The notes under the pieces: generated by a model | Told to the model about the DNA's origin: nothing | Databases searched by the model: none | The model's input: the letters and a program-made list of their open reading frames with translations, nothing else | Shown: in pieces, positions 8,990 through 61,578 of the stretch | How positions within the stretch are numbered: position 1 is the first letter of the stretch | How the letters are laid out: each line of letters opens with the position of its first letter | Translations under genes and position numbers: made by a program | Assembly (NCBI RefSeq): GCF_963931595.1 | Contig: NZ_OZ007030.1 | Location: 548,481 to 612,480 of the forward strand | Source: an uncultured Subdoligranulum sp. | Lineage (GTDB): Bacteria; Bacillota; Clostridia; Oscillospirales; Ruminococcaceae | DNA length: 64,000 nucleotides | Direction of reading: 5' to 3'

Positions 8990-9064
8990 TCGGGCAAAAT
9001 GAACCATGATAGGCCAATAATTTGGGGTACAGCCTGCCGGAATTCCGCAATCCGGCATAAGGGC

Positions 9065-9093
9065 TTGCAAATGGGGCCAATCCTTGTTATAAT
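9065..9093 (+). promoter_or_regulatory. Sigma-A promoter of the IclR gene
   Basis: TTGCAA-17-TATAAT with an extended TG. Confidence 0.85.
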
Positions 9094-9112
9094 CGTTCCG
9101 TGATACGGAACG
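9094..9112. promoter_or_regulatory. Palindromic operator, probably bound by the IclR regulator
   Basis: Perfect IR CGTTCCGT-GAT-ACGGAACG directly after the -10, covering the start site. Confidence 0.65.
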
Positions 9113-9181
9113 GCTCCGGCCGAACGAGGCAAAAGCGAAAAATGTGAATATTTTGTTAATTTTTGGGAAGAGGGCGATCTT

Positions 9182-9967
9182 GTGGCGGAAAAAGGCGGCG
9201 TACAGAGTGTGGAGCGGATCTTTGCGCTGATCGAGCTGCTGGCGGCCCACCCGGCGGGGGCCAGCCTGCAGACGCTGGCCCAGGGCACCGCCCTGGCCAA
9301 GAGCACGGTGCACCGGCTGCTGGCCAGCCTGGTGGGGCTGGGGTATGTCTCCCAGGAGGAGACTTCGGGGCGGTATCGCCTGACGCTGAAGATGTTTGAG
9401 CTTTCCAGCGGCATCGTCAACGATATGGCCATCATGGAGGTGGCCAAGGCCCATCTGGAGCGGTTGGCCCAGCGCACCGGCGAGGCGGTGCATCTGGTCA
9501 TCCGGGACGGCCAGGACATTGTCTACATTTATAAGACGGAGAACGGTCCCATGCGGATGTCCAGCCGGGTGGGCATGCGCAGCCCGCTCTACTGCACCGG
9601 CGTGGGCAAGGCCATTCTGGCCACGCTGCCCGCCGGGGAGGTGGCCCAGGTCTGGGCTGCCAGCCGGCCCCGCAAGCTCACCGAGCGGACGGTGGCGGAC
9701 CTGCCCCATCTGCAGGAACAGCTGGAGACGGTGCGGGCCAAGGGCTACGCGGTGGACGACGAGGAAAACGAGCTGGGGGTGCGCTGCGTGGCGGTGGCCA
9801 TCCCGGGACCGGACGGCCGGGCGGACAGCGCCTTCTCCATCAGCGGCCTGACCCCCTACATGACGCCGGAGCGCATCCGGCGCATCGCGGCCATGGCGTT
9901 GGACTCCCGCACCGACATTCTGGCGGACCTGGGCATCGCCCGCCGCAGTGCCGCACAAACCGAATAA
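9182..9967 (+). CDS. IclR-family transcriptional regulator (KdgR-like)
   Basis: VQSVERIFALIE HTH, KSTVHRLL, TGEAVHL, PLYCTGVGKAIL, GYAVDDEENELGVRCVAV; divergent from eda-kdgK. Confidence 0.93.
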   Translation: MAEKGGVQSVERIFALIELLAAHPAGASLQTLAQGTALAKSTVHRLLASLVGLGYVSQEETSGRYRLTLKMFELSSGIVNDMAIMEVAKAHLERLAQRTGEAVHLVIRDGQDIVYIYKTENGPMRMSSRVGMRSPLYCTGVGKAILATLPAGEVAQVWAASRPRKLTERTVADLPHLQEQLETVRAKGYAVDDEENELGVRCVAVAIPGPDGRADSAFSISGLTPYMTPERIRRIAAMALDSRTDILADLGIARRSAAQTE

Positions 9968-33999: not shown

Positions 34000-34074
34000 G
34001 GTGCGCCCGCAGGAACTCGAATCCTGGACCCTCTGATTAAAAGTCAGATGCTCTACCAACTGAGCTACGGGCAC
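33999..34074 (-). tRNA. tRNA-Lys (anticodon UUU)
   Basis: 76-nt cloverleaf GTGCCCG..GCTCAGTTGGTAGAGC..TCTGA CTTTTAA TCAGA..TTCGAG..CGGGCGC ACCA. Confidence 0.97.
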
Positions 34075-46030: not shown

Positions 46031-46056
46031 TCCCACTGGAAACCGGGTGAGAGTTT

Positions 46057-47211
46057 ATGAGCAAGACAGAACCGAAAGTTGCCATTGTACACGACTGGCT
46101 GGTGGCCTATGCCGGAGCCGACCGTGTGGTGGACTGCATGCACCATGTGTTCCCCAACGCAGTGATCTATACGCTGGTCTACGACGAGAAGAAGATGCCG
46201 GCCTGGTTCAAGGATTACGACATCCGCACCACCTGGGTGCAGAGGATTCCCTTTGCCACCCGGATTTATAAAAATCTGCTGCCGCTGATGCCCGGTGCCT
46301 TCGAGGCGCTGGACCTGTCGGAGTATGATCTGGTGCTGTCCTCCTCGTCCTCCTGCGCCAAGGGGGTCATCACCCGGCCGGACGCGGTACATATCTGCTA
46401 CTGCCATACGCCCACCCGCTATGTGTGGGATTTCTACTACACCTACCGGGACAACGCCAACTGGCTGGTGAAAGCCGTCATGCCCCACCAGATCCACAAG
46501 ATGCGTGTCTGGGACAAGTGTGCCGCCGACCGGGTGGATTATTTTATCGCCAACTCCCACTACATTGCCCAGCGCATCAAAAAGTACTATCGCCGGGACA
46601 GCGACGTGATCTATCCCTGCTGCCACATCAATGAGGCACCCTTCGTGAAGAAGGAGGACTTCTATCTGGTGGTGGGCCGCCTGACCTGGTACAAGCGGGT
46701 GGACCTGGCGGTGGCCGCCTGCACCAAGCTGGGCAAGCGGCTCGTCGTCATTGGCGGCGGCGGGGAGGAGGGCAAGCTCAAGGCCATGGCCGGGCCCACC
46801 ATTGAATTCAAGGGCGGCGGCCTCAGCGACGAGGAGGTGCGCGGGTACTACCTGCGGGCCAAGGCGTTCCTCTTCCCCGGGGAGGAGGATTTCGGCATCA
46901 CGCCGGTGGAGGCTCAGTCGGCGGGCACGCCGGTGCTGGCCTACGGCCGCGGCGGCGCCTGCGAGACAGTGCTGCCCGGCAAGACCGGCTACTGGTTCCA
47001 CGAGCAGACGCCCGACAGCCTGATGCGCTGCATCGAAGTGTTCGAGCGGGACGGCGTGGCCTACACCAAGGAAGAGATCCGGGAACACAGCCGCTCTTTC
47101 AGCGAAGCGCGGTTTGAGAAGGAGCTGGGAGAATACTGCGCCCGGCGCATGGCAGACTGGCAGCAGGAACTGCTGGACTGCTCCCACTGGCAGAAGGAGG
47201 AAATGGATTGA
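46057..47211 (+). CDS. GT4 glycosyltransferase (WbaZ-like)
   Basis: AIVHDWL, DLVLSSS, CYCHTPTRYVWD, EEDFGITPVEAQSAG. Confidence 0.9.
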   Translation: MSKTEPKVAIVHDWLVAYAGADRVVDCMHHVFPNAVIYTLVYDEKKMPAWFKDYDIRTTWVQRIPFATRIYKNLLPLMPGAFEALDLSEYDLVLSSSSSCAKGVITRPDAVHICYCHTPTRYVWDFYYTYRDNANWLVKAVMPHQIHKMRVWDKCAADRVDYFIANSHYIAQRIKKYYRRDSDVIYPCCHINEAPFVKKEDFYLVVGRLTWYKRVDLAVAACTKLGKRLVVIGGGGEEGKLKAMAGPTIEFKGGGLSDEEVRGYYLRAKAFLFPGEEDFGITPVEAQSAGTPVLAYGRGGACETVLPGKTGYWFHEQTPDSLMRCIEVFERDGVAYTKEEIREHSRSFSEARFEKELGEYCARRMADWQQELLDCSHWQKEEMD

Positions 47212-48260
47212 ACCCCATTGTCATCAACGGCACCGTGCTGTGCGACAACATCACCGGCATCCCGCGCTACGTGTATGAGACGGTCACCCGGCTGGACACC
47301 CTGCTGGAGGGGACCGGCCTGGATGTGCGCATCGCCTACCGGGACGACGGCCGTCCCATCCACCTGCCGGAACTGAAAAACATCCGGCTGGTGCCCCTCA
47401 AGGCGGTGAAGTATTTTTACAACATGGCGGTGCTGCCGGCCTATCTGCGGCGCAACCACGCCTTCTTTGTGGGGCTGGCCAGCGATATGCTCATGACCCG
47501 CCGCAGCGTGGTGGTGCTGCACGACATCCGCCCGCTGGTGATGGATACCGACCGGGGCTTTTTCCGGTTCAAGTTCTGGGTACACTGCCTGTCCACCAAA
47601 TGGTTCGCCCAGAAGGTGTACACCGTCAGTGAGGACCAGCGCCGGCTCATCAGCGACAAGCTGGGCATTCCCCTGGACAAGATCGGGGTGACCTACAACG
47701 GCTGGGAGCACATGAAGCAGGTGACCCCTGACGAGAGCATCTTCGACAAGCTGCCCGGCGTGACGAAAGGGGAATACTTCTACGCCCTGGGGAGTCTGGC
47801 CAAGCACAAGAACTTCAAGTGGATCCGGGAGGTGGCCCGCCGCAATCCCGACAAGACTTTTGTGGTGGCGGGGGGCAAGGACCTGCGGGCCTTCGGTGAC
47901 GATGCCGAGGCCAGGGACACGGCCAACGTGTTTTATCCGGGCTATGTCAGCGACGCCGAGAATGCGGCGCTGATGCAGAACTGCAAGCTGTTTCTCCATC
48001 CGGCTGTTTTCGAGGGCTTCGGCATTCCGCCGCTGGAAGCGCTGGCCCTGGGGGCGCCCATCGCCCTGGCCCGGGCCAGTTGCCTGCCGGAACTGTACGG
48101 CGACACCGCCCGCTACTTTGACCCCTACGATTACGAGGTGGATCTGGACGCCCTGGCGGCCCAGCCGGTGGCTCCGCCCGACAAAGTGCTGGAAAAGTAC
48201 AGCTGGGACAAGACGGCGGCCTTCTGGCTGGAACAGATCAAACGGTACGCGGCGCAGTAA
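47208..48260 (+). CDS. GT4 glycosyltransferase (MtfB-like)
   Basis: TGIPRY, LHDI, GSLAKHKN, FEGFGIPPLEAL. Confidence 0.9.
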   Translation: MNPIVINGTVLCDNITGIPRYVYETVTRLDTLLEGTGLDVRIAYRDDGRPIHLPELKNIRLVPLKAVKYFYNMAVLPAYLRRNHAFFVGLASDMLMTRRSVVVLHDIRPLVMDTDRGFFRFKFWVHCLSTKWFAQKVYTVSEDQRRLISDKLGIPLDKIGVTYNGWEHMKQVTPDESIFDKLPGVTKGEYFYALGSLAKHKNFKWIREVARRNPDKTFVVAGGKDLRAFGDDAEARDTANVFYPGYVSDAENAALMQNCKLFLHPAVFEGFGIPPLEALALGAPIALARASCLPELYGDTARYFDPYDYEVDLDALAAQPVAPPDKVLEKYSWDKTAAFWLEQIKRYAAQ

Positions 48261-48303
48261 TCTTCTGGTTCGCCGGACCCAAAGGGAAGGATAGAAAATC
48301 GGT

Positions 48304-50703
48304 ATGATCATTGCGGCATTGCTGACGACGGCGCTGATGGCGCTGCTCTTCGGGCTGCTGCCGGCGGGCCTCGCCGGGCAGCAGATCCGGGGACGGGATC
48401 TGGGCTGGACCATCGGCCTCTGGCTGGTGGTCTGGCTGTTTGCGCTGTGCGCCTACCACCGCCCCGGCATCACGGTGGGCTTTGACGGGTTCCGCCTGGC
48501 GGCCCTCACGGCCATGACCGGCTGGGCAGGGCTCTGCACAGCAGGGCTCCGCCACTTCGGACGCCGGGGCGCCAGGTTCGTGCTGCCGCTGCTGGCAGTG
48601 CTGGCGGCCGGCACGGAACTGTTTGTCTGCAATGTGACCTACTTCAACACCCACAGCTATGAGCCGTTCCAGCTCATGGACTATCTGGACCCCAACGTCA
48701 ATGTGGAGCGGGGCAACGGAACCATCTCCCTGGAGGAGGGGCGCACCTACCTGCGTTTTCTCGACGTGGACCGGCCTGTCTACAACCTTCACCTGGACAA
48801 CCTCACCAACGACGACACTGACCCGCTCCACGCGGACAGTGCCTTTACCTTTGCCGTGGAGGGCACCGACGAGGCCAACAGTCAGCTGGTCCGTTTCGGC
48901 AGCTGGGAAGTGGCGCCCCAGGCGGCGCGCACCCACACCATCAGCCTGGACCTGACCGGCAACGTGGGCATGCTGGTGCTGCAGGCCAGCGGGTACACCA
49001 GCACCTATGCCCAGTATCCGGTGGCCTTTACCGTCACCGGCATCACGGCCAACATGCCCCGGCCGCTGCAGTTTTCCCTGCTGCGGTTCGCCGCGCTGTG
49101 GCTGCTCTTCGGAAGCGTCTATCTGCTGCGGCCCCGCAGCGGACTGTGGCAGCGCCGCTGGCTGGCGGGCAACCTCTGTGACCGCGCCGCCGCCACCGTG
49201 CTGGGCTTGATTCTGGCGGCCTTTGTGGTGGTGGTACCCTTCTGGGAACCCGGCAATTCCGGGCTGGCCACCGCCACCTACAACACCGGCTTCTGGGACG
49301 GGGAGAGCACCGTCAGTTTTGTCTACCAGCAGTACGGCGCGCTGGCCCACAGCCTGCTCAACGGCCGCCTCGACCTGGAGGAGGACCCGCCCGCGGAACT
49401 GCTGGCCATGGACAACCCCTACGACGCCTCCGCCCGAGACGCGCTGAACATCCAGGGCGGCCGCTGGGACCATGCCTTTTATAACGGGCGGTATTACGTC
49501 TATTTCGGCATTGTGCCCTGTCTGCTGTTCCAGCTTCCCTTTGAAGCCATTACCGGCATCCAGAATCTGGCCTATGCCCCCTGTATGGTGATCCTGGGCC
49601 TGGTGTTCCTGATCAGCTGCTACGGAATTTTGAGCCAGGTGGTGCGCCGCTGGTTCCCCCAGGCATCAACCGCTGCCTACCTGCTTTGCGTGGCGGCGCT
49701 GGTGCTGGGCAGTCAGCTGTATTCGCTCTTGATCCGCCCCTATATTTATGAGTACGCCATCCTGTGCGGCGCAGCCCTGCTGATGTTGGGGCTGTGGCTC
49801 TGGCTGGCAGCCGCCAGTACGCCGGTCAACCACAGGGGGGTGCTCACGGTGCGGCTTGTCTTTGGCAGCCTGTGTGTGGCACTGGTGGCCGGGTGCCGTC
49901 CCCAGATGGAACTGTTCGCCCTGCTGGCGCTGCCCATCTTCTGGAACCGCTACATCGTCCACGGACGGCTGCGCAGCCGTGCCGGCGTGCGGGAGGCGGT
50001 GGCCTTCCTGCTGCCCGTTGTGGTGGTGGCCGCGGGCCTGATGTGGTATAACTATGCCCGCTTTGGTTCTCCCTTTGATTTCGGTGCCACCTACAATATT
50101 ACCGGCAATGATATGACCAAGCGCGGCTTCAATGTGGTGCGCATCGGTCCGGCGATTTTCACCAGCCTGCTGGATCTGCCCCGTCTGCAGAGTGTATTTC
50201 CCTATCTGCAGGAGACCGATGTGTCCACCAATGCGGTCATTCTGACCATCAGCGAAAAATTCTGCGGCGGCATGCTGGCAGCCACCCCCTTTACCTGGGC
50301 GCTGCTGCTGCCGGCGCTGCCGCTGGCACGGCGCAGCCTGCACCGCCGCCGGGGCGCGGCGGCCATCGTCTACGGTTCTGTGGCGGCCATGGTGCTGATT
50401 ACGGTGGTGGACTGCCAGATGGCCGGCGTGCTCTACCGGTATCTGATGGATTACAGCCCGGTGCTGCTGCTGGGCGCGGCGATCTGCTGGCTGCTGGCTG
50501 ATACAACCCTGGCCCGGCGGGCCGCGGGGGGCGAGGCTCTGGCCGTCTCGCTGCTGCCGGTGCTGCGCATCGGTATGGCGGCAGCCCTGGCGTGGAGCGT
50601 TGTGTATCGTTTCTGCACTTTGTTTGCGATGGAACCCTGGCTGCAGGGGATGAACCCGTCGCTGTATTATACGGTGAACCGTCTGGTTCAGTTCTGGATG
50701 TAA
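48304..50703 (+). CDS. Large polytopic membrane protein, probable GT-C glycosyltransferase with an extracytoplasmic domain
   Basis: Many TMs; YGALAHSLLNG, WDHAFYNGRYYVYFG, YEYAI, GCRP, YNYARFGSPFDFG; context among GTs. Confidence 0.62.
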   Translation: MIIAALLTTALMALLFGLLPAGLAGQQIRGRDLGWTIGLWLVVWLFALCAYHRPGITVGFDGFRLAALTAMTGWAGLCTAGLRHFGRRGARFVLPLLAVLAAGTELFVCNVTYFNTHSYEPFQLMDYLDPNVNVERGNGTISLEEGRTYLRFLDVDRPVYNLHLDNLTNDDTDPLHADSAFTFAVEGTDEANSQLVRFGSWEVAPQAARTHTISLDLTGNVGMLVLQASGYTSTYAQYPVAFTVTGITANMPRPLQFSLLRFAALWLLFGSVYLLRPRSGLWQRRWLAGNLCDRAAATVLGLILAAFVVVVPFWEPGNSGLATATYNTGFWDGESTVSFVYQQYGALAHSLLNGRLDLEEDPPAELLAMDNPYDASARDALNIQGGRWDHAFYNGRYYVYFGIVPCLLFQLPFEAITGIQNLAYAPCMVILGLVFLISCYGILSQVVRRWFPQASTAAYLLCVAALVLGSQLYSLLIRPYIYEYAILCGAALLMLGLWLWLAAASTPVNHRGVLTVRLVFGSLCVALVAGCRPQMELFALLALPIFWNRYIVHGRLRSRAGVREAVAFLLPVVVVAAGLMWYNYARFGSPFDFGATYNITGNDMTKRGFNVVRIGPAIFTSLLDLPRLQSVFPYLQETDVSTNAVILTISEKFCGGMLAATPFTWALLLPALPLARRSLHRRRGAAAIVYGSVAAMVLITVVDCQMAGVLYRYLMDYSPVLLLGAAICWLLADTTLARRAAGGEALAVSLLPVLRIGMAAALAWSVVYRFCTLFAMEPWLQGMNPSLYYTVNRLVQFWM

Positions 50704-50725
50704 AGGCAAGAAAGAGAGGTCCGCG

Positions 50726-51667
50726 GTGATGGACAAAATTGCGGTTTTGATTCCCTGCTACAACGAGGCCAAAACGGTGGAAAAGGTGGTCACGGATTTC
50801 CGTCGGGTGCTGCCCGAGGCCACCATCTATGTATACGACAATAACTCCACCGACGGCACCGCGGAACTGGCGGCCGCTGCCGGTGCGGTGGTGCGGCATG
50901 AATACCAGCAGGGCAAGGGCAACGTCATGCGCCGGATGTTCCGGGAGATCGATGCCGAAGCCTACGTGCTGGTGGACGGGGACGACACCTATCCCGCCGA
51001 GGCCGCGCCCGAGATGGTGCGCGCCGTCACCCAGCGCCAGGCAGACATGGTGGTGGGGGACCGTCTTTCCAGCACCTACTACACCCAGAACAAGCGCCCC
51101 TTCCACAACTTCGGCAACGATCTGGTGCGTTTCTGCACCAACCACCTGTTCGGCGGCAAGATCAAGGACATCATGACGGGCTACCGGGCGTTCAGCTACC
51201 AGTTTGTCAAAACCTACCCGGTACTCTCCCGGGGCTTTGAGATCGAGACCGAGATGACCATCCATGCCCTCCAGCGCAACATGCAGGTGGACAACGTGGT
51301 CATCGAATACCGCGACCGCCCCGAGGGTTCCGAGAGCAAACTCAACACCTACTCGGACGGCTTCAAGGTGTTGGGCACCATCCTGCGCCTCTTCAAGAAC
51401 TACCGTCCCTTCACCTTCTTCGGCGTGTTGGCGGCGGTGCTGGCGGTGTTCGGCATCGGGTTCATGATCCCGGTGCTCAACGAGTATTTCCACACCGGTC
51501 TCGTGCCCCGCTTCCCGACCCTCATCGTCTGCTGCTTCGTATTGGTGGCAGCCCTGCTTCTCTTTGTATCGGGCGTGATCCTCTCCAGCCAGCTGGCCAA
51601 GGACGCCCGGGACTTTGAATTCCAGCTTCAGACCGTGCAGCACTGGAAGCGCACGGCCGGGGAATGA
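50726..51667 (+). CDS. GT2 polyprenyl-phosphate glycosyltransferase (GtrB/DPM-synthase-like)
   Basis: IPCYNEA, DNNSTD, LVDGDDTY, DIMTGYR, GFEIETE; two C-terminal TMs. Confidence 0.9.
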   Translation: MMDKIAVLIPCYNEAKTVEKVVTDFRRVLPEATIYVYDNNSTDGTAELAAAAGAVVRHEYQQGKGNVMRRMFREIDAEAYVLVDGDDTYPAEAAPEMVRAVTQRQADMVVGDRLSSTYYTQNKRPFHNFGNDLVRFCTNHLFGGKIKDIMTGYRAFSYQFVKTYPVLSRGFEIETEMTIHALQRNMQVDNVVIEYRDRPEGSESKLNTYSDGFKVLGTILRLFKNYRPFTFFGVLAAVLAVFGIGFMIPVLNEYFHTGLVPRFPTLIVCCFVLVAALLLFVSGVILSSQLAKDARDFEFQLQTVQHWKRTAGE

Positions 51668-53997
51668 ACGCCACGGCCCGCACCCGGGCCTTCCTGAAGA
51701 TCCATCCGCTGTTCGGGGCGGTCTTCCTGGTGGAACTGCTGTTCCTGGCCGCTTTGGTGGCGGGGGCCTTCCGACCACTGGTGGAAGTCTCGGTGCCGCT
51801 GGACGGCATGACCCGGCAGGAGGACGGCAGCAGTGTGTCCCAGCCGGTGACGCTGCCTTCCGGCGGATACCGGGTCACGGTCAGTTATGAAGCGACCTAT
51901 CCACATGACCCCAACCGCGCCGACGACGGGACGGTAGCCACCTTGTCCTTCGCCTCGGCCCAAAACCCGGCGGCATTGCAAAGCGATGCCATCACCCTCA
52001 CCGGCAACCGCTCCACCGTGACGGCCCGGCTGTGGGTCGGCACGGCCGCCACGGTGGAGGATCTGACGCTGACGGTGACCGAGACCCCGGCGGAGGGGCA
52101 GCAGTTTTCCCTGCAGAGCGTGACGCTGACCGAACAGCCCATCTGGCGGGCAACCTCGCTGGTGGGCTGGCTGCTGCTGTTTGCGGTGGCCGACTGGCTG
52201 CTGAGCCTGCTCTTTTTAGGGGACAGCCCCCGGGCGCCCCGCTGCGGCTGGGGTGTGGTGTTGCTGGTGGCGGGCGGCATAGTGCTGGCCAGCCTGCCCT
52301 ATTGCGCCGATTTCCTGTACACCGGCCACGATCTGCGGTTCCACTGTTACCGTATCTGGGCGGTGGCCCAGGCGCTGGCCGACGGACAGTTCCCGGTGCG
52401 CCTTTTCACCGACGGCTTCAACGGTTACGGTGCGGCCACACCGCTGTATTACTGTGACCTGTTTTTGTATATCCCCGCCCTTTTGTACAACGCGTTTTTG
52501 CCCCTGCAGACCTGCTACCAGCTGTATGTGGTGCTGGTCAACGCCGCCACCATGCTGGCGGCCTACTACAGCTTTTCGCGCATCGGCGGGCATCGGCTAT
52601 ACGGCGCTGTGGCGGCCTTCGCCTACACGCTGTGCGCCTACCGGCTCACCAACCTGATGCTGCGCGGCTCGGTGGGGGAGTACACCGCCATGGTCTTTCT
52701 GCCGCTGGTGGCGCTGGGGGCCTGGGCCATTGCCCGGCAGGACCGCCCCGCTCCCCGGGACTGGCTGCCGCTGGCCTTAGGGATGGCGGGCATCGTCCAG
52801 AGCCATCTGCTCACCACCGAGCTGGCCGCCCTCTTTCTGGCGCTGTTCTGGCTGTGCAACCTGCCGGTAATGGTGCGCCCTGCCCGTCTGCTGGCCGCCT
52901 GCAAGGCGGTGGTGGTGGCTGTGGGGCTAAGCTGCTGGTTCCTGCTGCCCTGCCTGCAGACGCTCAAGAGCCAGAAGGTCATGATCAGCGATGTACATCC
53001 GTCGCCGCTGCAGTCCACCGGCACCTATCTGATCCAGCTGCTGGGATTTTTCGGCACAGCGGGGGGCAGTTCGGGGCCGGGTACCACCGGCGATATGCCG
53101 CTGACCATCGGTCTGGCGGGCTGTGTGGTGCTGGTGCTGGCGCTGTGGTGCTGTGTGCGGCGCGGGGCGTGGCAGCACACCCTGGAAAGCCGCAACCGCT
53201 GGCTGGGGTTGCGGGGCAGCCTGGCGCTCTGCCTGCTGGCTCTGTGGCTGTCCACCACGTCCTTCCCCTGGGACTGGCTGGCCAACAAACTGCCCCAGAC
53301 CCTGGTGGATATATTGCTCAAGCCCCAGTTCAGCTGGCGCTATCTGGCGGTGGCGGTGGTGCTGCTGGGGGTCATCACGGTGACGGCCCTGCAGCTGGCG
53401 GAATCCGCCGCGCCGCGTCTGGCCCAAGGGATGGCGATTGCCGTTGTGGCGGCCACGCTGCTCTATGTAGGTGTCTTCTACAGTGAATATGCCTACCGGC
53501 AGGACACCATAACGCTGATCAGCACCGAGACCGTCACGGATTTCCCCTACGAAACCATGGGGTACGATTACCTGCCGGCCGGCGCGGATTTTGCCACCTT
53601 TGCAAGTTCGGAAGCCTCGGCGGAAAATCCCGGGGTGACGGTCTCCTGGCAGGAGAACGGCGTGCTGGAATGCGAGAACCCGTCGGCACAGGAGGCTGCT
53701 GTTGACCTGCCGCTGCTGGCCTACCAGCATTACACCGCTGTGGATACCGCCACCGGGCAGACGCTGCCCCTGACGGAGAACGAATCCCATTGCCTGCAGG
53801 TTACGGTGCCGGCCGGCTACCGGGGGACCGTGCAGGTACGCTATACGCCGCCGCTGCTCTGGCACGGGGCGGAAGCGGTCACCCTGGTAACGATTCTGGG
53901 GCTGCTGGGCTGGGCCGTGTATACGACCCGCCGCAGGCAGAGGCCCCTGCACCATACAACAGTACGGAAAGTTGAGGAGGAAACGGTTCATGTATGA
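51664..53997 (+). CDS. GT-C membrane protein (YfhO / PTPS-related family)
   Basis: GHDLRFH, YYCDLFLY, YRLTNLMLRGSVGE, QFSWRYL, LPLLAY, VRYTPP. Confidence 0.78.
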   Translation: MNATARTRAFLKIHPLFGAVFLVELLFLAALVAGAFRPLVEVSVPLDGMTRQEDGSSVSQPVTLPSGGYRVTVSYEATYPHDPNRADDGTVATLSFASAQNPAALQSDAITLTGNRSTVTARLWVGTAATVEDLTLTVTETPAEGQQFSLQSVTLTEQPIWRATSLVGWLLLFAVADWLLSLLFLGDSPRAPRCGWGVVLLVAGGIVLASLPYCADFLYTGHDLRFHCYRIWAVAQALADGQFPVRLFTDGFNGYGAATPLYYCDLFLYIPALLYNAFLPLQTCYQLYVVLVNAATMLAAYYSFSRIGGHRLYGAVAAFAYTLCAYRLTNLMLRGSVGEYTAMVFLPLVALGAWAIARQDRPAPRDWLPLALGMAGIVQSHLLTTELAALFLALFWLCNLPVMVRPARLLAACKAVVVAVGLSCWFLLPCLQTLKSQKVMISDVHPSPLQSTGTYLIQLLGFFGTAGGSSGPGTTGDMPLTIGLAGCVVLVLALWCCVRRGAWQHTLESRNRWLGLRGSLALCLLALWLSTTSFPWDWLANKLPQTLVDILLKPQFSWRYLAVAVVLLGVITVTALQLAESAAPRLAQGMAIAVVAATLLYVGVFYSEYAYRQDTITLISTETVTDFPYETMGYDYLPAGADFATFASSEASAENPGVTVSWQENGVLECENPSAQEAAVDLPLLAYQHYTAVDTATGQTLPLTENESHCLQVTVPAGYRGTVQVRYTPPLLWHGAEAVTLVTILGLLGWAVYTTRRRQRPLHHTTVRKVEEETVHV

Positions 53998-55096
53998 TTA
54001 TCTGATTGTGGGCACCGGTCTTTTCGGCGCGGTATTTGCCCACGAGGCGACGGCGGCCGGCAAGCGCTGCCTGGTCATCGACAAGCGGGACCACATCGCC
54101 GGCAACATCTACACCGAGGACATCGAGGGCATCGCCGTGCACCGTTATGGCGCTCATATCTTCCACACCAACAACAAGGAGGTGTGGGACTACGTCAACC
54201 GGTTTGCCACCTTCAACCGCTACACCAATTCCCCGGTGGCCAACTACAAGGGCGAGCTGTACAACATGCCCTTCAACATGAACACCTTCAACAAGATGTG
54301 GGGCGTCATCACGCCGGCCCAGGCCCAGGCCAAGATCGAGGAGCAGCGGGCCGCCCACTACACCGAGCATCCCCGCAACCTGGAGGAGCAGGCCATCAAC
54401 CTGGTGGGCATGGACATCTACGAAAAGCTCATCAAGGGCTATACCGAAAAGCAGTGGGGCCGTCCCTGCACGGCGCTGCCGGCCTTCATCATCAAGCGGC
54501 TGCCGGTGCGTTTCACCTTTGACAACAACTATTTCAACGCCCTGTACCAGGGCATTCCCGTGGAAGGGTACACGGCGCTGGTGGCTAACCTTCTGCAGGG
54601 CATCGAGGTGCGGCTGAACACCGATTACCTCAAGGACCGCGCCGCCCTGGATGCACTGGCTTCCAAGGTGGTCTATACCGGCCCCATCGACGCCTACTTC
54701 GATTACAAGCTGGGGGCTCTTCAGTACCGCAGCGTCCGGTTTGAGACCGAAACGCTGGACATGCCCAACTACCAGGGCAACGCGGTCATCAACTACACTG
54801 ATGCCGAGACCCCCTACACCCGCATCATTGAGCACAAGCATTTTGTCTTCGGCTCCACCGAGCCGGGCACCAAGACGGTGATCAGCCGGGAGTATTCCGC
54901 CGAGTGGAAACCGGGCGACGAGCCCTACTACCCGGTGAACGACGAGGCCAACGGCGCACTGTATGCCAGGTACAAGGAGCTGGCCGATGCCCAGCCCAAC
55001 GTGCTGTTCGGCGGCCGTCTGGGCGAGTACAAGTACTACGACATGGACCGCGTCATCGAGGTGGCGCTGGACCGGGTACGGGCCGAACTGGGCTGA
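53990..55096 (+). CDS. glf: UDP-galactopyranose mutase
   Basis: GTGLFG, HIAGN, YGAHIFHT, GYTEKQWG, TRIIEHKHF, EPYYP, GRLGEYKYYDM. Confidence 0.97.
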   Translation: MYDYLIVGTGLFGAVFAHEATAAGKRCLVIDKRDHIAGNIYTEDIEGIAVHRYGAHIFHTNNKEVWDYVNRFATFNRYTNSPVANYKGELYNMPFNMNTFNKMWGVITPAQAQAKIEEQRAAHYTEHPRNLEEQAINLVGMDIYEKLIKGYTEKQWGRPCTALPAFIIKRLPVRFTFDNNYFNALYQGIPVEGYTALVANLLQGIEVRLNTDYLKDRAALDALASKVVYTGPIDAYFDYKLGALQYRSVRFETETLDMPNYQGNAVINYTDAETPYTRIIEHKHFVFGSTEPGTKTVISREYSAEWKPGDEPYYPVNDEANGALYARYKELADAQPNVLFGGRLGEYKYYDMDRVIEVALDRVRAELG

Positions 55097-55101
55097 TGTA
55101 A

Positions 55102-55144
55102 AAAATACCGCAGAGCCGCCGCAGCGCGGACCTGCGGTATTTTT
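55102..55144 (+). terminator. Terminator ending the glycosylation operon
   Basis: AAAATACCGCAG/CTGCGGTATTTT IR. Confidence 0.8.
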
Positions 55145-55271: not shown

Positions 55272-55928
55272 ATGACCAAAATTGCCGCTTCGATCCTGTC
55301 GGCGGACTTTGCCAACCTCCAGGAGGATTGTACGCGCCTTCTGCAGGAGGGCGTGGATCTTCTGCATATTGATGTGATGGACGGCCACTTTGTGCCCAAC
55401 ATCAGCTACGGCGCACCGGTCCTGCAGAGCCTGCACCAGGCGCTGCCCGATGCCTATTACGACGTGCACCTGATGATCAGCGACCCGGCGCGGTACGCGG
55501 CGGATTTTGCCAAGGCAGGCGCCGACCTGATCACCTTCCACCTGGAGGCGGTGCCCGACACGGCGGAGGAAGTCATTGCCGCCATCCGGGCCACCGGCTG
55601 CCAGGTGGGCATCAGCATCCGGCCGGGAACCCCGGTGGAAGCTGCTTTCCCGTATCTGGGCGTGGCGGATCTGATTCTGGTCATGAGCGTGGAGCCCGGC
55701 TTCGGCGGGCAGAAGTTCCTGCCCGGCACGCCCCGGCGGCTGGCGGTGCTGGATGCCGAGCGCAAGCGCCGGGGCTGTTCCACCGTGCTGGAAGTGGACG
55801 GCGGCATCAACGCCGAGACCGGCCCTGCCTGTGTGCAGGCCGGCGCCGACTGGCTGGTGGTCGGCAATTCGCTGTTCCGCGCGGAGGATCCGGCCGCGGT
55901 GGTACGTCTGCTCCACGGGCAGGCCTGA
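55272..55928 (+). CDS. rpe: Ribulose-phosphate 3-epimerase
   Basis: IAASILSADF, HIDVMDGHFVPN, DVHLM, VMSVEPGFGGQKF, EVDGGI. Confidence 0.96.
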   Translation: MTKIAASILSADFANLQEDCTRLLQEGVDLLHIDVMDGHFVPNISYGAPVLQSLHQALPDAYYDVHLMISDPARYAADFAKAGADLITFHLEAVPDTAEEVIAAIRATGCQVGISIRPGTPVEAAFPYLGVADLILVMSVEPGFGGQKFLPGTPRRLAVLDAERKRRGCSTVLEVDGGINAETGPACVQAGADWLVVGNSLFRAEDPAAVVRLLHGQA

Positions 55929-55954: not shown

Positions 55955-56974
55955 ATGGCGAATCGTATGAAAATCGAACGCAGCGAGAATTACGATTATT
56001 ATCGTGATCTGCTGTGGTGTTCCGTTCCGTTGATCGGAATGGCCTGGTACTATTATGGCCCCCGTCCGGTGCTGCTGCTGCTGACGGGACTGCTGACGGC
56101 CTATCTGTGCGACTGTGCCCTGGCACCGCTGCACGGGGCAGGGTACCATTCCCATGAGCCGTCCAGCGAATGCTTTGCGGCCCTGATCGTGCTGATGATG
56201 CCGGCAACGGTACCCTACGCGGTGGTCGTTGCGGCCGTCATTGCGGCAGTTCTGGTCAAGGAGGCCTTCGGCGGCGAGGGACACTATCCCTTCCACCCGG
56301 CGGCGGTTGGCATGGCGGTGGCCGGCATTTCCTGGCCGGATGCCGTCTATCAGTATCCCGCCCCCGGCGTCTGGCTGCCGGTGTGGGGCGTTTCCGATGC
56401 CGACCTGGTGGAGGGCATGAACGCTACCCTGCGGGACGGCGGTCTGCCCAGCGCCAGCACCATGAATCTGCTCACCGGCAATGTCTCGGGCGGCCTGGGC
56501 ACCACGGCAGCCCTTGTGGTCATTGCCTGCGGCCTCTTTTTGCTGGTGCGCAGACGCATCCGTCTGTCGGTGCTCATCCCGTTCCTCATCTTCTGCATCG
56601 GCCTGCCCTGGCTGCTGCCCCAGCTCAACGAGCTGCCGGTGGTCAGCTGGCCGTGGGAATATGTGCGCCAGCGTATCTATCTGGAAAAATATATCATTCT
56701 CTCGGGAACGATGCTGTTCGGTGGTCTGTTCCTGATCTGTGAGCCGGTGACCATGCCTAACCGCACCAGCAGCCGTATTGTGTATGGTGCAGCGCTGGGC
56801 ATTGCCACCTATGCCTTCCGGGTGTTCAGCCCCTACGAGAGCGCCGCCTGCCTGGCGTTGCTCATTGTGGGCGCCATTCCGGAATGGCTGGATCTGATCA
56901 GCCACCGCACCGAGCGTATCCGCTTTATGAGGAAGGAGGAGCAGCGCCTTGCCCAGTTTACAAAACCGGAATAA
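55955..56974 (+). CDS. RnfD/NqrB-like membrane protein, divergent (FMN-attachment motif degenerate)
   Basis: KEAFGGEGHYPFHPAAVG, GNVSGGLGTT, LSGTMLFGGLFLICEPVTMP and RIVYGAALG align with RnfD. DLVEGMN lies where DxxSGAT is expected. Confidence 0.8.
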   Translation: MANRMKIERSENYDYYRDLLWCSVPLIGMAWYYYGPRPVLLLLTGLLTAYLCDCALAPLHGAGYHSHEPSSECFAALIVLMMPATVPYAVVVAAVIAAVLVKEAFGGEGHYPFHPAAVGMAVAGISWPDAVYQYPAPGVWLPVWGVSDADLVEGMNATLRDGGLPSASTMNLLTGNVSGGLGTTAALVVIACGLFLLVRRRIRLSVLIPFLIFCIGLPWLLPQLNELPVVSWPWEYVRQRIYLEKYIILSGTMLFGGLFLICEPVTMPNRTSSRIVYGAALGIATYAFRVFSPYESAACLALLIVGAIPEWLDLISHRTERIRFMRKEEQRLAQFTKPE

Positions 56975-58238
56975 CCGCCGCAAGGGGGAAGAACATTCCG
57001 AAACGCTGATCATCCCCCATATTACCAAGGAAATGCTGGAAAAGGCCCGGTCGATGGCGGCGCAGGGGGCATCCCGTGCCGAGATCGAGCAGGCCATTGC
57101 CGAGATGCAGGGGACCATCGCCCCGAAGCCCGAGGAGTCCCAGCCGCAGCCCGAACCGGACGCGCGCCGCATCATTCCCACCAGCCGCAAGCGCCATACC
57201 GACGAGGAGCGCAAGGCGATGCTGGAGCAGATGCGGCAGGAGCAGGCCCAGCGGGAGGCGGAGCGCCGGGAGGAGGCATCCCACCGCACCCAGCGCCCGG
57301 CCTGGCATTTCCCCACGTCCCGGCCTGCACCGGAAAAGCAGCCTGCAGCCCGGCCTGCCGAAACAGCGGAATCCCGCACCGAGGCGACGATCCGCATCCC
57401 GGCGGTAAAGCCGGCACCGCAGCCTGCCCGTCCCGCGGAACCGGCACTGAAAGTGCCGGAACCGGCCCCGGCACCCCAGCAACAGCAGCCGCCGCAGCAG
57501 CAACAGCAGCCGGTTCAGAAAGAACCGGCCCCCCGCAGGGAAGCGCCGCCGGCCGCCCCGAAGCGCCAGGCCGGACTGCTGCGCAGTCGCGCCGAGGCGG
57601 AGGCGGAACTGAATGAAAAGATCCGCAGCGACCATATCTGGCTGTCCAACCCCGTGATGGTCCGCGGCCTTGGCCTGGCACCGGTCATCGGTGCTGCGCT
57701 GGACGGGGAGCGGGCACTGATCCTCTGTGTGGCCAGCCTGCTGCTCATCACCTTTACCCGGGTGCTGGCGGTGGCGGTGTGCCATCTCAGCGGCAACCGG
57801 TTCCGCCCCGTCATCTACAGCTACGCGGCGGCCCTGCTCTATATCCCTGTGTACATTCTGCTGTATGAATTCTTCGGCAACAGCCTGACGGCCCTGGGTA
57901 TCTATCTGCCTATCCTCGTTGTGGAACCGGCCATTGTCAAGCGCATGGAATTCAGTGAACTGGAACCGCTGGGCGACGCTTTGCGCCACGGCTTCAACAA
58001 CGGCATCGGCATGTGCATAGCCCTGCTGATTGTGGGCTGCCTGCGGGAGTTCCTGGCCAGCGGTACGGTGTTCGGTCATGAGGTGATCCAGACGGCGCCG
58101 CTGCCGCTGGCGGCACAGCCTGCCGGCGGTTTCGTCCTGGTGGGCGTCATCGCGGCGGTCTGGTGCGCGGTGGCCAATGCCTACACCGATTATAAACGGG
58201 AGGAGGTGCATCGCCTGTATGCCGGCCGTAAACATTGA
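56949..58238 (+). CDS. RnfE-like membrane protein with a ~230-aa Pro/Gln/Glu/Arg-rich N-terminal extension
   Basis: C-terminal part NPVMVRGLGLAP, LGIYLPILVVEP, GCLREFLASGTVFG, PAGGFV aligns with RnfE. TTG start at 56949 after GGAGG is inferred. Confidence 0.78.
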   Translation: MPSLQNRNNRRKGEEHSETLIIPHITKEMLEKARSMAAQGASRAEIEQAIAEMQGTIAPKPEESQPQPEPDARRIIPTSRKRHTDEERKAMLEQMRQEQAQREAERREEASHRTQRPAWHFPTSRPAPEKQPAARPAETAESRTEATIRIPAVKPAPQPARPAEPALKVPEPAPAPQQQQPPQQQQQPVQKEPAPRREAPPAAPKRQAGLLRSRAEAEAELNEKIRSDHIWLSNPVMVRGLGLAPVIGAALDGERALILCVASLLLITFTRVLAVAVCHLSGNRFRPVIYSYAAALLYIPVYILLYEFFGNSLTALGIYLPILVVEPAIVKRMEFSELEPLGDALRHGFNNGIGMCIALLIVGCLREFLASGTVFGHEVIQTAPLPLAAQPAGGFVLVGVIAAVWCAVANAYTDYKREEVHRLYAGRKH

Positions 58239-58872
58239 ATTTGTGCCGCTGCTGCGCGGTGTGCTGGACTTCATCACCTATATGGGCCTTGCCATCTTTG
58301 CGGAAAACGTCATTCTGGCCCGGGCCCTGGGTGTCACCCGTCTGCTGAAGCTGGTCCCCGACCACAAAGCCCAGGTCTGGGACTTCAGTCTGCCCCTGAT
58401 TCTCGTCATGACCTTTTCCGCCCCCATGGGCTGGGCGGCCCACAATCTGCTGTTTCCTTGGCTGCGTAACTACCTGCCGGAATGGCTGCCCGTGGCGGCC
58501 CTGCGCCCGCTGATTTACCTGAGCTGTGCGTCGGCGGCCATGATCCTGACCTGGATTTTGCTGTTTGTGCTGCCCCGCCGTCAGCGGCAGGCCTGCCACG
58601 CCCAGCTGACCCTGGGCGGCTGCAGTACCGGCGTGCTGGGTGTTCTGCTGATCTGTGCCAACCAGAACTATACCATGATGCAGAGCATTGCCTTCGGATT
58701 GGGCAGTGCGCTGGGCTATGTGTTCATCATCTTTATCGTGCGGGAAGGCCGGCGCCGCCTGCGCAGTAAGGATGTACCGGCGATCTTCCAGGGACTTCCC
58801 AGTTCCCTGATTTATATCGGCATTCTCTCCCTGGCCATCTACGGTCTGGTGGGACATGCCGTTGTGCTCTGA
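58219..58872 (+). CDS. RnfA-like membrane protein, divergent
   Basis: ENVILARALGV, GLGSALGY, IVREGRRRL..KDVPAIFQGLPSSLIYIGILSLAIYGL is the RnfA C-terminus pattern. Confidence 0.8.
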   Translation: MPAVNIEFVPLLRGVLDFITYMGLAIFAENVILARALGVTRLLKLVPDHKAQVWDFSLPLILVMTFSAPMGWAAHNLLFPWLRNYLPEWLPVAALRPLIYLSCASAAMILTWILLFVLPRRQRQACHAQLTLGGCSTGVLGVLLICANQNYTMMQSIAFGLGSALGYVFIIFIVREGRRRLRSKDVPAIFQGLPSSLIYIGILSLAIYGLVGHAVVL

Positions 58873-58892: not shown

Positions 58893-60179
58893 ATGGCACT
58901 TCCGTGCTTTGTTGCTGCAGATATTCTGCTTCCGGCTGAGGGCACCCCGCTGGACCCCTGGGCCTGCATTGCGGTGGATCAGTTTACTTCCCAGCCGGAA
59001 TACTGGCAGCGCGCCGAGGAACTGGCCAAGGACCATCCCAGTACGCTGCACATCGTGCTGCCCGAGGCCTACCTTGGCACGCCCCAGGAGGAACAGCGGC
59101 TGCACGATATCCGTGATACCATGGAGCAGTACCGCATCCGGGTGCTGACGCGCCAGGTGCACGGGTATGTGTATGTGGAGCGGACCCAGATGGATGGCAG
59201 CATCCGCCAGGGTCTGGTGGGTGCTGTGGACCTGGAGGCGTACGACTACGCGCCGGGCAGCCACACGGCCATCCGGCCCAGCGAGAGCACCGTGGTAGAG
59301 CGGATTCCGCCGCGCCTGAAAGTGCGCCGCGGCGCGCTGCTGGAAACGCCTCACGTGATGATGCTGGCCGACGATGCGGGCAAGACGCTCATCGAGCCCA
59401 TCGGTGCCTGCAAGGAGGAACTGCCGCTGCTCTATGACGGCGAACTGATGCTGGGCGGCGGACACCTGCGGGGCTGGGCGGTGGAGGACCCCGCCCGTAT
59501 TGCCCAGATCGATGCCGCCCTGGCGGCGCTGGCTGACCCGGAGGCGTTTGCCCGGCGGTGGCCGGCAGCCGCGGGCCAGACCCCCATGGTGCTGGCCGTT
59601 GGCGACGGCAACCACAGCCTGGCCACGGCGAAAGCCTACTGGGAGGAGCTGAAACCCACCCTCACCGAAGAACAGCGCAAGACCCATCCGGCGCGTTGGT
59701 GCCTGGCGGAGGTCTGCAATGTGCACAGCCCGGCCATCGAGATTGAACCCATCCACCGGGTGGTGTTCGGCGTCACGGCCAAGGAGCTGTACCAGGACCT
59801 GGACCGCTGGGACAATGCCCAGGGCAAGCGCACCGAGCCGTCGACCCAGCGGTTCCGTCTGGCGGACCGCCAGGGCGAGATCGCCGTGGCGCTGCAGAAT
59901 CCGTCGGCGCCGCTGACAGTGGGCAGCATCGAGGCCTTCCTGGAGGATTGGCTGCCCAAGCATCCCGATGCCAGCGTGGACTACATCCACGGTGCCTCCA
60001 CGGCGATGGCGCTGGCCTCCCGGCCCGATCGTCCGGCCACAGCCATTCTGCTGCCCGACTTCAACAAGGCGGACCTCTTCCGGGGTGTTGTGCTGGGCGG
60101 CGTACTGCCGCGCAAGACCTTCAGCATGGGTCATGCGGAGGAAAAACGTTATTACAATGAATGCCGAGTGATCGGTTAA
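58893..60179 (+). CDS. DUF1015-family protein (ParB/Srx-like fold)
   Basis: WACIAVDQFTS, LHIVLPE, IRPSESTVVERIPPR, VGDGNHSLATAK, IEPIHRV, LPRKTFSMG. Confidence 0.9.
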   Translation: MALPCFVAADILLPAEGTPLDPWACIAVDQFTSQPEYWQRAEELAKDHPSTLHIVLPEAYLGTPQEEQRLHDIRDTMEQYRIRVLTRQVHGYVYVERTQMDGSIRQGLVGAVDLEAYDYAPGSHTAIRPSESTVVERIPPRLKVRRGALLETPHVMMLADDAGKTLIEPIGACKEELPLLYDGELMLGGGHLRGWAVEDPARIAQIDAALAALADPEAFARRWPAAAGQTPMVLAVGDGNHSLATAKAYWEELKPTLTEEQRKTHPARWCLAEVCNVHSPAIEIEPIHRVVFGVTAKELYQDLDRWDNAQGKRTEPSTQRFRLADRQGEIAVALQNPSAPLTVGSIEAFLEDWLPKHPDASVDYIHGASTAMALASRPDRPATAILLPDFNKADLFRGVVLGGVLPRKTFSMGHAEEKRYYNECRVIG

Positions 60180-60197: not shown

Positions 60198-60722
60198 ATG
60201 GAAAAAACCGCACAAAATCCGTCCGGCGCACCGCGCCGCCGTCGTCGCCGCCGCGGTTCCGGCGCGGGTGCTTCCCAGAATGCCCAGAGCCAGGCCGCCC
60301 GGGAAAACGGGAAGCAGGCCCAGCCGGCTGCCAAGGAGAAACCTGCCCGGCAGCAGCCGCCGCGCAAGGAGAATAAAGAACAGAACGCCCCGGCACCTTC
60401 CGCCCGCGGCCGCCATCGGGGCGGTGCCCAGGGGGAGGCGGCTTCCCAGGCGCCTTCGTCCGGCCGTCGCGGCCGGGGCGGCAACGGGGGACAGCAGCAG
60501 GCACCGGCCAAGGAGCAGAACCACGGCCAGAAGCCCTCTTCCCGCGCTTCCCGCAGCCAGCGCCGGGCGGCCGACGAGGACCCCGGGCTGGAGCTCATCG
60601 CGCGCCGTCCGCCCAAACAGAAGTTTGCCAACTTTGAGGAATACCTGGCGGCCCACGGCGGTATGACGGTGCCGCTGCCCGAGGAAGAAACGGCCCCGGT
60701 GAATGACGGAGCCGCCCAATGA
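60198..60722 (+). CDS. Hypothetical low-complexity basic protein
   Basis: R7 tract and G/Q/R/S-rich body, C-terminal QKFANFEEYLAAHGG. Tightly packed in the operon; ATGA overlap with the next gene. Confidence 0.65.
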   Translation: MEKTAQNPSGAPRRRRRRRGSGAGASQNAQSQAARENGKQAQPAAKEKPARQQPPRKENKEQNAPAPSARGRHRGGAQGEAASQAPSSGRRGRGGNGGQQQAPAKEQNHGQKPSSRASRSQRRAADEDPGLELIARRPPKQKFANFEEYLAAHGGMTVPLPEEETAPVNDGAAQ

Positions 60723-61543: not shown

Positions 61544-61578
61544 AAGCGACCCGCTGTCTTACAGGCAGCGGGTCGCTT
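61544..61578. terminator. Bidirectional terminator
   Basis: 13-bp IR AAGCGACCCGCTG/CAGCGGGTCGCTT. Confidence 0.8.

Follow-up and report, generated by a model that had tools for sequence, protein, structure and literature searches.

Canonical Rnf complexes relay electrons across the membrane through cofactors held by their integral membrane subunits. RnfD carries flavin mononucleotide (FMN) covalently attached to the Thr of a (D)xx(S/T)GAT motif, and an intramembrane [2Fe-2S] cluster is held by four Cys ligands, two in RnfE and two in RnfA. The subject of this study is a triad of genes related to rnfD, rnfE and rnfA, here termed D', E' and A', located at positions 55955-58872 of a stretch of 64,000 nucleotides (nt) from an uncultured Subdoligranulum sp. 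(contig NZ_OZ007030.1, positions 548,481 to 612,480 of the forward strand). This stretch is called the window. In the triad the flavin acceptor and all four Cys ligands have been replaced, and the genes are maintained by selection. The cofactors of the membrane subunits are described in a 2025 review as strictly conserved (PMC12174285), and a literature search found no description of a cofactor-less clade of Rnf or Nqr.

The path taken by the ions in Rnf and Na+-NQR is still debated, with routes through RnfD/NqrB or through the RnfA/RnfE pair under consideration (PMC12174285). RnfA and RnfE form an inverted pair resembling alternating-access symporters, and RnfD/NqrB is related to the Amt and urea transporters and has a constriction formed by Phe residues; in NqrB the constriction or gate residues are F338 and F342 (PMC12174285). 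The superfamily includes a precedent for a subunit that has no cofactors, namely NqrA, a homologue of RnfC (PMC12174285).

A probable relative of the triad comes from the sister genus Faecalibacterium, the species of which reportedly have two copies each of RnfA, RnfD and RnfE and one each of RnfB, RnfC and RnfG (bioRxiv 10.1101/2020.12.09.414284). In F. duncaniae A2-165 a set of genes named rnfDEA (CG447_09840-09830) is present alongside rnfCDGEAB, and was treated as a second putative rnf operon contributing to NADH:ferredoxin oxidoreductase activity (PMC10781979). The likeness to the window lies in the D-E-A triad; that study describes neither the losses of the cofactor sites nor the wider family. 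From gene content and phylogenetic position, rather than from sequence alignment, we infer that the Faecalibacterium rnfDEA is very probably the orthologous triad. Its presence beside a full rnfCDGEAB makes it unlikely that the triad is the sole Rnf core, and by analogy with Faecalibacterium the triad would fit a paralogue that coexists with a true Rnf. A literature search for Rnf in Gemmiger or Subdoligranulum returned nothing, and matches to 'rnfCDEA' were substrings of 'rnfCDEAB' and unrelated. In a search for expression data, the locus tags CG447_09830-09840 were absent from the text supplements of the F. duncaniae paper.

The three genes of the window are on the + strand and overlap one another. 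D' (55955-56974) encodes an RnfD/NqrB-like membrane protein of 339 residues, with AAGGAG before its ATG and a match to PF03116 of 151 bits. E' (56949-58238) encodes an RnfE/NqrD-like protein of 429 residues that matches PF02508 with 92.5 bits over residues 227-401. It starts with TTG preceded by GGAGG, the same start as given by the gene caller in the orthologous loci L016-L018. A' (58219-58872) encodes an RnfA/NqrE-like protein of 217 residues, with 62.9 bits to PF02508. An alternative ATG at 58177 would give 231 residues and has no Shine-Dalgarno sequence; the start at 58219 is favoured because the Shine-Dalgarno sequence GGAGGAGG lies 11 nt before it, and gene callers also give 217 residues in L016-L018. 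The genes overlap by 26 nt (D'/E') and 20 nt (E'/A'), and the Shine-Dalgarno sequences lie within the preceding genes, an arrangement consistent with translational coupling. The GC content of third codon positions (GC3) backs all three frames, including the N-terminal extension of E'. The initial annotation of this DNA had described three overlapping RnfD-, RnfE- and RnfA-like frames between rpe and a DUF1015 gene, and both the open reading frames and the Pfam matches agree with this. All three Pfam scores are above the gathering scores. At the level of NCBIfam the proteins fall far below the cut-offs of all the Rnf and Nqr models, with 103.8 bits against a required 207 for D' (TIGR01946), 65.9 against 213 for E' (TIGR01948) and 65.2 against 229 for A' (TIGR01943). 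For D' the RnfD models give better scores than the NqrB models do.

HMMER alignment with Vibrio cholerae NqrB places D-G-Y-S-G-A-T236 of that protein opposite W144-G-V-S-D-A-D150 of D' (56384-56404, +, coordinates checked by translation), where the canonical sequence would be D-G-x-S/T-G-A-T. The acceptor Thr is thus Asp150. The initial annotation had read the former FMN site as D150-LVEGM-N156; the loss itself stands and the register does not, being shifted by six residues, and neither register offers a Ser or Thr acceptor within a flavinylation motif. Of about 98 full-length D' representatives of the family aligned to canonical references, all but one are without the flavinylation motif, and the sequence of this loop is hypervariable. 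The exception, P0269, carries a canonical-type site and was set aside. It had been considered as a canonical RnfD close to D', and was dropped because the N-terminus of a Gemmiger-type D' is followed in it by a C-terminus of NqrB type with an intact flavinylation-type site, GYTMATP. Most likely P0269 is a chimera that arose in assembly and entered the public collection.

The ligands of the [2Fe-2S] cluster have gone in the same way. In E' the first ligand site, canonically LGxCP (LGMCP in the aligned chains), reads L241-G-L-A244-P (57669-57683, +), so that Cys is replaced by Ala. The second, canonically VVNC, reads V324-V-E326-P327 (57918-57929, +), with Glu for Asn and Pro for Cys. Both were aligned with the solved chains 7zc6_E, 9eri_E and 7xk3_D. 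In A', aligned with 7xk3_E, 9eri_A and 8ahx_A, the first site has L-G-V-T-R for LGICP (58327-58341, +), with Thr for Cys and Arg for Pro, and the second reads G-C-S-T-G-V for T-T-N-C-A-V (58618-58635, +), within GCSTGVLG for TTNCAVLG. Here there is a Thr at the ligand position and a single Cys two residues upstream. All four Cys positions are therefore replaced, by A244, P327, Thr and Thr. These residue-by-residue alignments bear out the earlier reading of the four sites, which had claimed the loss of at least three ligands, and its numbering of the first A' Thr as T40 is consistent with the 217-residue start at 58219. No conservation of the Cys ligands or of the FMN-bearing Thr in a shifted register was seen in the alignments, an outcome that had been named in advance as telling against the loss. 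With the FMN-Thr and at least two (here four) of the [2Fe-2S] Cys residues lost, the transmembrane ferredoxin-to-NAD+ electron relay of Rnf is not possible.

Other features of the membrane core are kept. The motifs FGGEG, GNVSGGLGTT, ICEP and LRE are present in the window proteins, as first noted, and an R-E pair in E' and an Asn in A' that are invariant both in the D'E'A' family and in canonical Rnf are found here too. The equivalents of the ion gate of NqrB are retained in the D' segment F255-G-G-L-F259-L-I-C-E263-P264 (56717-56746, +), with F255, F259 and E263-P264 corresponding to NqrB F338, F342 and D346-P347. Among 54 D' family sequences these gate positions are conserved as Phe in 49, Phe in 47 and Asp or Glu in 50. 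The K-x-x-F-G-G-x-G...N-P-A motif and the overall scaffold of the RnfD pocket are also conserved in the family. Residue 247 of D' (window ~56693-56695) is Ile, where 51 of the 54 family members and Clostridium tetanomorphum RnfD have the Glu of 'YEL'.

An AlphaFold2 model of D' has a mean predicted local distance difference test score (pLDDT) of 87.4 and a predicted template modelling score (pTM) of 0.86. The top Foldseek matches of the model are the RnfD chains 8ahx_D, 9eri_D and 7zc6_D, with template modelling (TM) scores of 0.71-0.80 and E values between 1e-12 and 7e-11, followed by NqrB and then, distantly, by urea transporters, Amt and Rh proteins (TM scores 0.3-0.46). On the basis of this model D' has the RnfD/NqrB fold of 10 transmembrane helices. 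It carries PF03116 only, with no NAD-binding domain PF00175. Some D' homologues are much longer (500-759 residues), and these were considered as fusions to known domains. This was rejected, as the additional sequence is a charged, low-complexity tail with no Pfam domain. In three of the homologues (P0205, P0207 and P0229) the C-terminal tails share a start ...Y(K/R)QSxEY... and an Arg-rich end 'RR(R)K...GGW(G/S)', which resemble short linear motifs that a cytoplasmic partner might bind.

E' comprises an N-terminal cytoplasmic arm of about 220 residues (56949-57608, +), delineated by composition, GC3 and alignment of orthologues, and a core of six transmembrane helices (residues ~223-429). The arm is rich in Ala, Pro, Glu, Arg and Gln, and from this composition it is probably disordered. 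Alignment of the Gemmiger and Subdoligranulum orthologues reveals conserved islands within it, among them TLIIPHITKEMLEKAR..GASRAEIEQAI, IIPTSRxR..EERKAMLEQ and the juxtamembrane sequence AEAEAELNEKIRSDHIWLSNP. The arm is present in these two genera and absent in loci L019-L021. Other genera have comparable charged low-complexity segments with no Pfam domain, located instead at the C-terminus of D'.

The loss of every cofactor ligand, and scores far below the NCBIfam cut-offs, might be explained by a redundant rnfDEA copy drifting to pseudogenes. We compared the window with its Gemmiger and Subdoligranulum orthologues, using ratios of nonsynonymous to synonymous substitution (dN/dS) that are approximate, as the synonymous divergence (dS) is 0.6-1.3 and near saturation. 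Against loci L002-L009 the ratio is 0.10-0.17 for D', 0.14-0.20 for the core of E', 0.13-0.25 for A' and 0.20-0.42 for the arm of E'; the flanking rpe and DUF1015 genes give 0.05-0.21 and 0.08-0.16 respectively. For the most distant orthologue, L010, dN/dS climbs to 0.31-0.39 for all of the genes. The triad is thus under purifying selection like that on the flanking housekeeping genes, and is not decaying; we take D', E' and A' to be functional, co-transcribed paralogues of RnfD, RnfE and RnfA. The order rpe-D'-E'-A'-DUF1015 is fully syntenic in twelve Gemmiger and Subdoligranulum genomes, with DUF1015 also syntenic in L021. Intact frames with Shine-Dalgarno sequences, dN/dS of 0.1-0.25 against the closer orthologues, synteny kept across genera, a family of at least 132 clusters and a confident RnfD-fold model for D' all contradict decay, and we regard it as excluded. 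The genes had initially been called intact, translationally coupled and not decaying, and the overlaps and substitution ratios uphold that view.

The window is one member of a large family. An exhaustive phmmer search of D' against 1.84 billion cluster representatives yielded 132 or more clusters (50% identity, E<1e-30). Matches within the family are at 117-523 bits, compared with 32-44 bits for RnfD and NqrB chains when solved structures were searched separately. The members with names belong to Gemmiger, Subdoligranulum, Huintestinicola, Negativibacillus, Angelakisella, Anaerotruncus and unclassified Oscillospiraceae, some of the names having come from exact matches to ten D' proteins encoded in metagenome loci; one cluster also contains a metagenome-assembled genome labelled 'Clostridium sp.'. 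A scan of a genome collection with D' alone matched only close relatives. Nearly all of the named D' members are annotated by the NCBI pipeline as 'RnfABCDGE type electron transport complex subunit D'. Across about 70 loci the four cluster Cys residues never occur together in one member. The first A' Cys never survives and the first E' Cys does so only in a small subgroup, while the second A' Cys, in an 'FNC' sequence, is kept in many. In that subgroup (L071, L084, L087, L097 and L102) the first E' Cys is found as G-x-C-P, and the RnfC-like protein encoded there, C', has a distinct motif CDGCGACSYVC; it may represent an intermediate stage of cofactor loss. Judged by their sequences, these proteins form a conserved family of Rnf-derived membrane subunits, so far found in the single order Oscillospirales, predicted to be unable to hold covalent FMN or the intramembrane [2Fe-2S] cluster.

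In other genera the triad is part of a larger operon. Its context was surveyed in 80 metagenome loci fetched with the family profile, plus several looked-up contigs, with counts that are not deduplicated by species. The usual order is rpe, C', D', E', A' and a gene for a DUF4015 protein, frequently with a mecA-like gene of opposite orientation after rpe. Where there was enough flanking sequence, D' is followed by E' and A' in 56/59 loci and has C' as a neighbour in 50/59, a DUF4015 gene comes after A' in 36/40, and 38/38 metagenome loci have rpe upstream. RnfG- and RnfB-like genes were absent between and after the operon genes in the surveyed loci. C' aligns with RnfC over about 290 residues, and both CxxCxxCxxxC motifs for [4Fe-4S] clusters are kept in about 60 sequences. 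It lacks the glycine-rich FMN/NADH loop GxVGxGGAxFP, in place of which there is a conserved IIDExDG, and ECEPYLTCD has become DDEPYVSSQ. The acidic signatures IIDExDG and DAIDDEPYVSSQ take the place of the FMN/NADH loops of RnfC in L015 (2936-4219), in L043 (6748-7920) and in about 60 further loci, a pattern of conservation that suggests a new ligand or metal site and not random loss. Minus-strand 'C-like' matches in L031 and L076 were considered as a relocated C' and rejected, since the protein is an aldo/keto reductase that carries a ferredoxin tail.

The DUF4015 proteins combine a basic N-terminus with a single transmembrane helix and the putative glycosyl hydrolase domain PF13200. They are predicted to be anchored in the membrane with a glycosidase-like domain on the extracellular side. 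In searches for relatives among solved structures, DUF1015 and DUF4015 gave marginal matches only (a SIS domain, E 9e-4; an uncharacterised protein, E 3e-5). The MecA-family adaptor gene lies on the opposite strand between rpe and C' or D' in many lineages, for example at 9049-9654 (-) in L013 and 2098-2826 (-) in L015, and is not found in the window.

The window shares with this C'D'E'A'-DUF4015 family the similarity of D', the missing motif, rpe upstream and the contiguous D'-E'-A', while an adjacent C' and a DUF4015 gene after A' are not present at its locus; C' may be encoded in another part of the genome. In a rough neighbour-joining tree Gemmiger and Subdoligranulum group with L013, L014 and L019-L021, all without an adjacent C'; a second branch with no adjacent C' also exists. 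L021 has both DUF4015 and DUF1015 after A', where the window has DUF1015 directly after A'. The simplest reading is a stepwise reduction, in which C' was lost first and DUF4015 was then lost from the locus in Gemmiger. The triad of the window is a reduced form of a paralogous system that extends across the Oscillospirales, and not a one-off. At the second E' site the branch has a distinctive sequence, Asp or Glu followed by Pro in nearly all members (L001-L012, L016-L019 and L021, with Thr in L011), also seen in L101. In most other branches the two residues here are Asn and then Ser, Thr or Gly.

These features allow a comparison with the described complexes. With Rnf (structures 7ZC6, 8AHX and 9ERI) the triad shares homology of the D, E and A subunits, the gene order D-E-A, the RnfD fold, the R-E pair, the Asn, FGGxG and the D/E-P sequence, and other genera of the family also have an RnfC homologue upstream of D'. 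Rnf has the G and B subunits, the FMN-Thr and the four Cys ligands, whereas the triad has none of these, and C' is without the FMN/NADH glycine loop. The triad has in addition the putatively disordered arm and, in its relatives, a DUF4015 partner. Of the C, D, G, E, A and B set encoded by one operon in Rnf, the window contains D, E and A only. In Na+-NQR the subunits NqrB, NqrD and NqrE are homologous, and the gate residues F338, F342 and D346 have equivalents in D'. The triad differs in having no NqrC or NqrF, nor the N-terminal helices of the quinone site. The Amt and urea transporters are related to the fold of D' only distantly, with low TM scores and no sequence match, and D' keeps the Phe constriction that sets RnfD/NqrB apart from open channels. 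Of the aberrant systems on record, the one nearest to the triad is a two-subunit Nqr/Rnf-like complex associated with flavinylation, reported by Meheust et al. in 2021. Its RnfD/NqrB-like subunit likewise has no conserved flavinylation Thr (bioRxiv 10.1101/2024.03.13.584918). There a single subunit joins the D-like domain to a cytosolic NAD-binding domain, PF00175, and is paired with a flavinylated RnfG-like subunit; E and A are lacking. The triad by contrast has E' and A', no PF00175 and no G-like gene, D'-E'-A' leaving no gap for one.

The window was examined for the missing components. The initial annotation had found no rnfC, rnfG or rnfB, and motif scans and tblastn with an RnfC-like sequence were negative in agreement with this. 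Scanning all six frames of the 64 kb gave zero Dxx[ST][GSA]A[ST] flavinylation motifs, and CxxCxxCxxxC occurred only in a 108-codon open frame at 11570-11893. This ferredoxin-type Cys frame was judged spurious, since it overlaps a long gene on the opposite strand. tblastn of the window detected no RnfC-like, DUF4015 or MecA homologue. As a clue to a substrate we looked for riboswitches and leader RNAs in the window and eight diverse loci, and found none, the only RNA matches being tRNAs, 6S RNA, the L10 leader and pemK. The sole Rfam matches in the window are 6S RNA at 2242-2433 (-), with 53.4 bits, and a tRNA gene at 34002-34074 (-).

Upstream of the triad, rpe (ribulose-phosphate 3-epimerase; 55272-55928, +) matches TIGR01163 above its cut-off with 232.7 bits, its start being that called in L016-L018. 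The gap between rpe and D' is 26 nt, and the two are probably co-transcribed. The DUF1015 gene (58893-60179, +; PF06245, 194.7 bits) begins 20 nt downstream of A'. A consensus scan gave a terminator-like hairpin after glf (55118-55138, +), the likely upstream boundary of the transcription unit, and a strong one with a 16-bp stem and a T-run after a gene for an RlmA-type methyltransferase (61544-61578, +), the likely downstream boundary. It is possible that these two hairpins bracket one unit running from rpe through the methyltransferase gene. Contigs from a chicken-gut metatranscriptome cover D', E' and A', and one runs from the end of D' into A'; the depth of such contigs is a poor measure of expression, and this is weak evidence.

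Two other parts of the neighbourhood may be recorded. Between the DUF1015 and RlmA-type methyltransferase genes, 60198-60722 encodes a protein of 174 residues in which Arg, Lys, Gln, Ala and Gly abound. It has no Pfam match and is conserved yet fast-evolving across Gemmiger (44-72% identity). Directly upstream of rpe lies a cluster for cell-envelope polysaccharide (46051-55096). It encodes two glycosyltransferases of family GT4, one of family GT2, UDP-galactopyranose mutase (Glf) and a pair of large proteins with no Pfam match, one of 799 residues and the other a multi-transmembrane protein of 777 residues. The gene for the latter is absent from some Gemmiger genomes (L001, L005, L007 and L012). 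In orthologous loci the Bac_transf gene at the upstream edge of the cluster is only a cut fragment.

What might a membrane core of this kind do? The family keeps transporter-like features and has lost its electron carriers, and in the branch of the window there is a carboxylate at the former cluster site. For these reasons we favour a gated, alternating-access translocator of cations (Na+ or H+) or of a small solute, uncoupled from electron transfer, and we put the probability of this at about one half. The triad would then be the ion- or solute-handling half of Rnf, cut loose from electron transfer and built from the inverted E'/A' pair together with D'. Its activity could be controlled through the cytoplasmic arm of E' or, in other genera, through C'. 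In the branch of the window the former cluster site is occupied by the carboxylate of E326, and E' has gained its long cytoplasmic arm.

Several points weigh against a translocator. The mechanism is deduced from which residues were kept and which lost. A non-covalent riboflavin site could remain in D' and allow residual redox chemistry, especially in the genera that have C', and there is the single Cys near the A' site, with the 'FNC' Cys kept in many relatives. The carboxylate at the former cluster site is a property of one branch and not of the whole family, and neither the window nor the eight loci have a riboswitch or regulator that points to a substrate. The strongest partner elsewhere is the extracellular, enzyme-like DUF4015 protein, so that a role in signalling or as a scaffold fits as well as transport. 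Coexistence with a canonical rnf is taken by analogy from Faecalibacterium and not from this genome, and the context counts, the near-saturated dS and the rough tree make these parts of the evidence approximate.

An appreciably less likely explanation is that the core transduces a signal or a force, relaying a cytoplasmic state (the redox state of the Fe-S clusters of C', or a partner bound to the arm) to the extracellular DUF4015 domain. FtsEX offers an analogy, as a transporter-derived complex that controls extracellular cell-wall hydrolases. Among the non-Rnf genes of the operon the one for DUF4015 is the most constant, and its protein has the topology of RnfG, with the N-terminus inside and a single anchor before the PF13200 domain. 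The conserved islands in the putatively disordered arms and tails would suit such a role. DUF4015 is found fused to YkyA domains, as are polysaccharide deacetylases (PMC12700454), and large redox-linked movements of RnfG/NqrC belong to the canonical mechanism (PMC12174285). The window, however, has neither DUF4015 nor C', and its triad is equally conserved, so the core must be able to act in its own right; for Gemmiger one would have to suppose that the partner is encoded elsewhere or has been replaced. We consider it improbable that the complex is instead a residual redox module, in which D' would bind riboflavin non-covalently and trade electrons with C', or with the canonical RnfC in the branch of the window, over a short path on the cytoplasmic side that leads to an acceptor in the membrane or to a flavin; alternatively the triad would carry flavin or another small molecule. 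The conserved K-x-x-F-G-G-x-G...N-P-A motif and RnfD pocket scaffold would fit this, C' keeps both of its [4Fe-4S] motifs, and in canonical Rnf the riboflavin of RnfD hands electrons to RnfC (PMC12174285). The Thr-less subunit of the two-subunit complex, with its proposed non-covalent flavin site, is a precedent (bioRxiv 10.1101/2024.03.13.584918). Yet C' has lost the FMN/NADH loop and hence has no obvious electron donor site, the window has no C', and no gene for a donor or acceptor is conserved in the operon. Less probable still is an alternative core, modulator or assembly partner of the true Rnf that joins RnfC, RnfG and RnfB encoded elsewhere. Retention of the core residues common to canonical RnfE and RnfA would allow this, as would the single C, G and B and double D, E and A of Faecalibacterium (bioRxiv 10.1101/2020.12.09.414284). 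But a core with no FMN-Thr and no [2Fe-2S] ligands cannot link RnfB to RnfG to RnfD, most members of the family bring their own divergent C' and never G or B, and the canonical operon of Faecalibacterium is already complete (PMC10781979). The translocator remains our preferred reading. The initial annotation had proposed a non-redox complex that might serve as a channel or transporter, a sensor or scaffold, or a modulator of the true Rnf; for the membrane core non-redox this agrees with the loss of the cofactor sites, and it need not extend to the ancestral complex, in which C' keeps two [4Fe-4S] motifs.

Databases mislabel this family as ordinary Rnf, and the family itself is undescribed. Tentatively, and with less confidence than we place in the translocator, we suggest that the whole order that includes the dominant gut genera Faecalibacterium, Gemmiger and Subdoligranulum has turned a duplicate of Rnf into a machine that works without transmembrane electron transfer. 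Its full form would be C'D'E'A' plus DUF4015 and its minimal core the triad of the window, and it might act either as a redox-free translocator of ions or solutes or as a transducer of Fe-S or partner signals to the cell envelope. If so, the Rnf/Nqr membrane core would here have its first descendant with no part in respiration. If the triad cannot transfer electrons, then current annotations, and the inferences on energy conservation drawn from them (PMC10781979), do not hold for some of the gut's most abundant butyrate producers, which bears on metabolic models of major commensals. A natural cofactor-less version that keeps the fold, the gate and the core motifs lets ion handling be studied apart from electron transfer. 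If the proposal is true, the core of a respiratory pump has been reused in these bacteria, comparable to the loss of cofactors by NqrA but affecting the whole membrane module.

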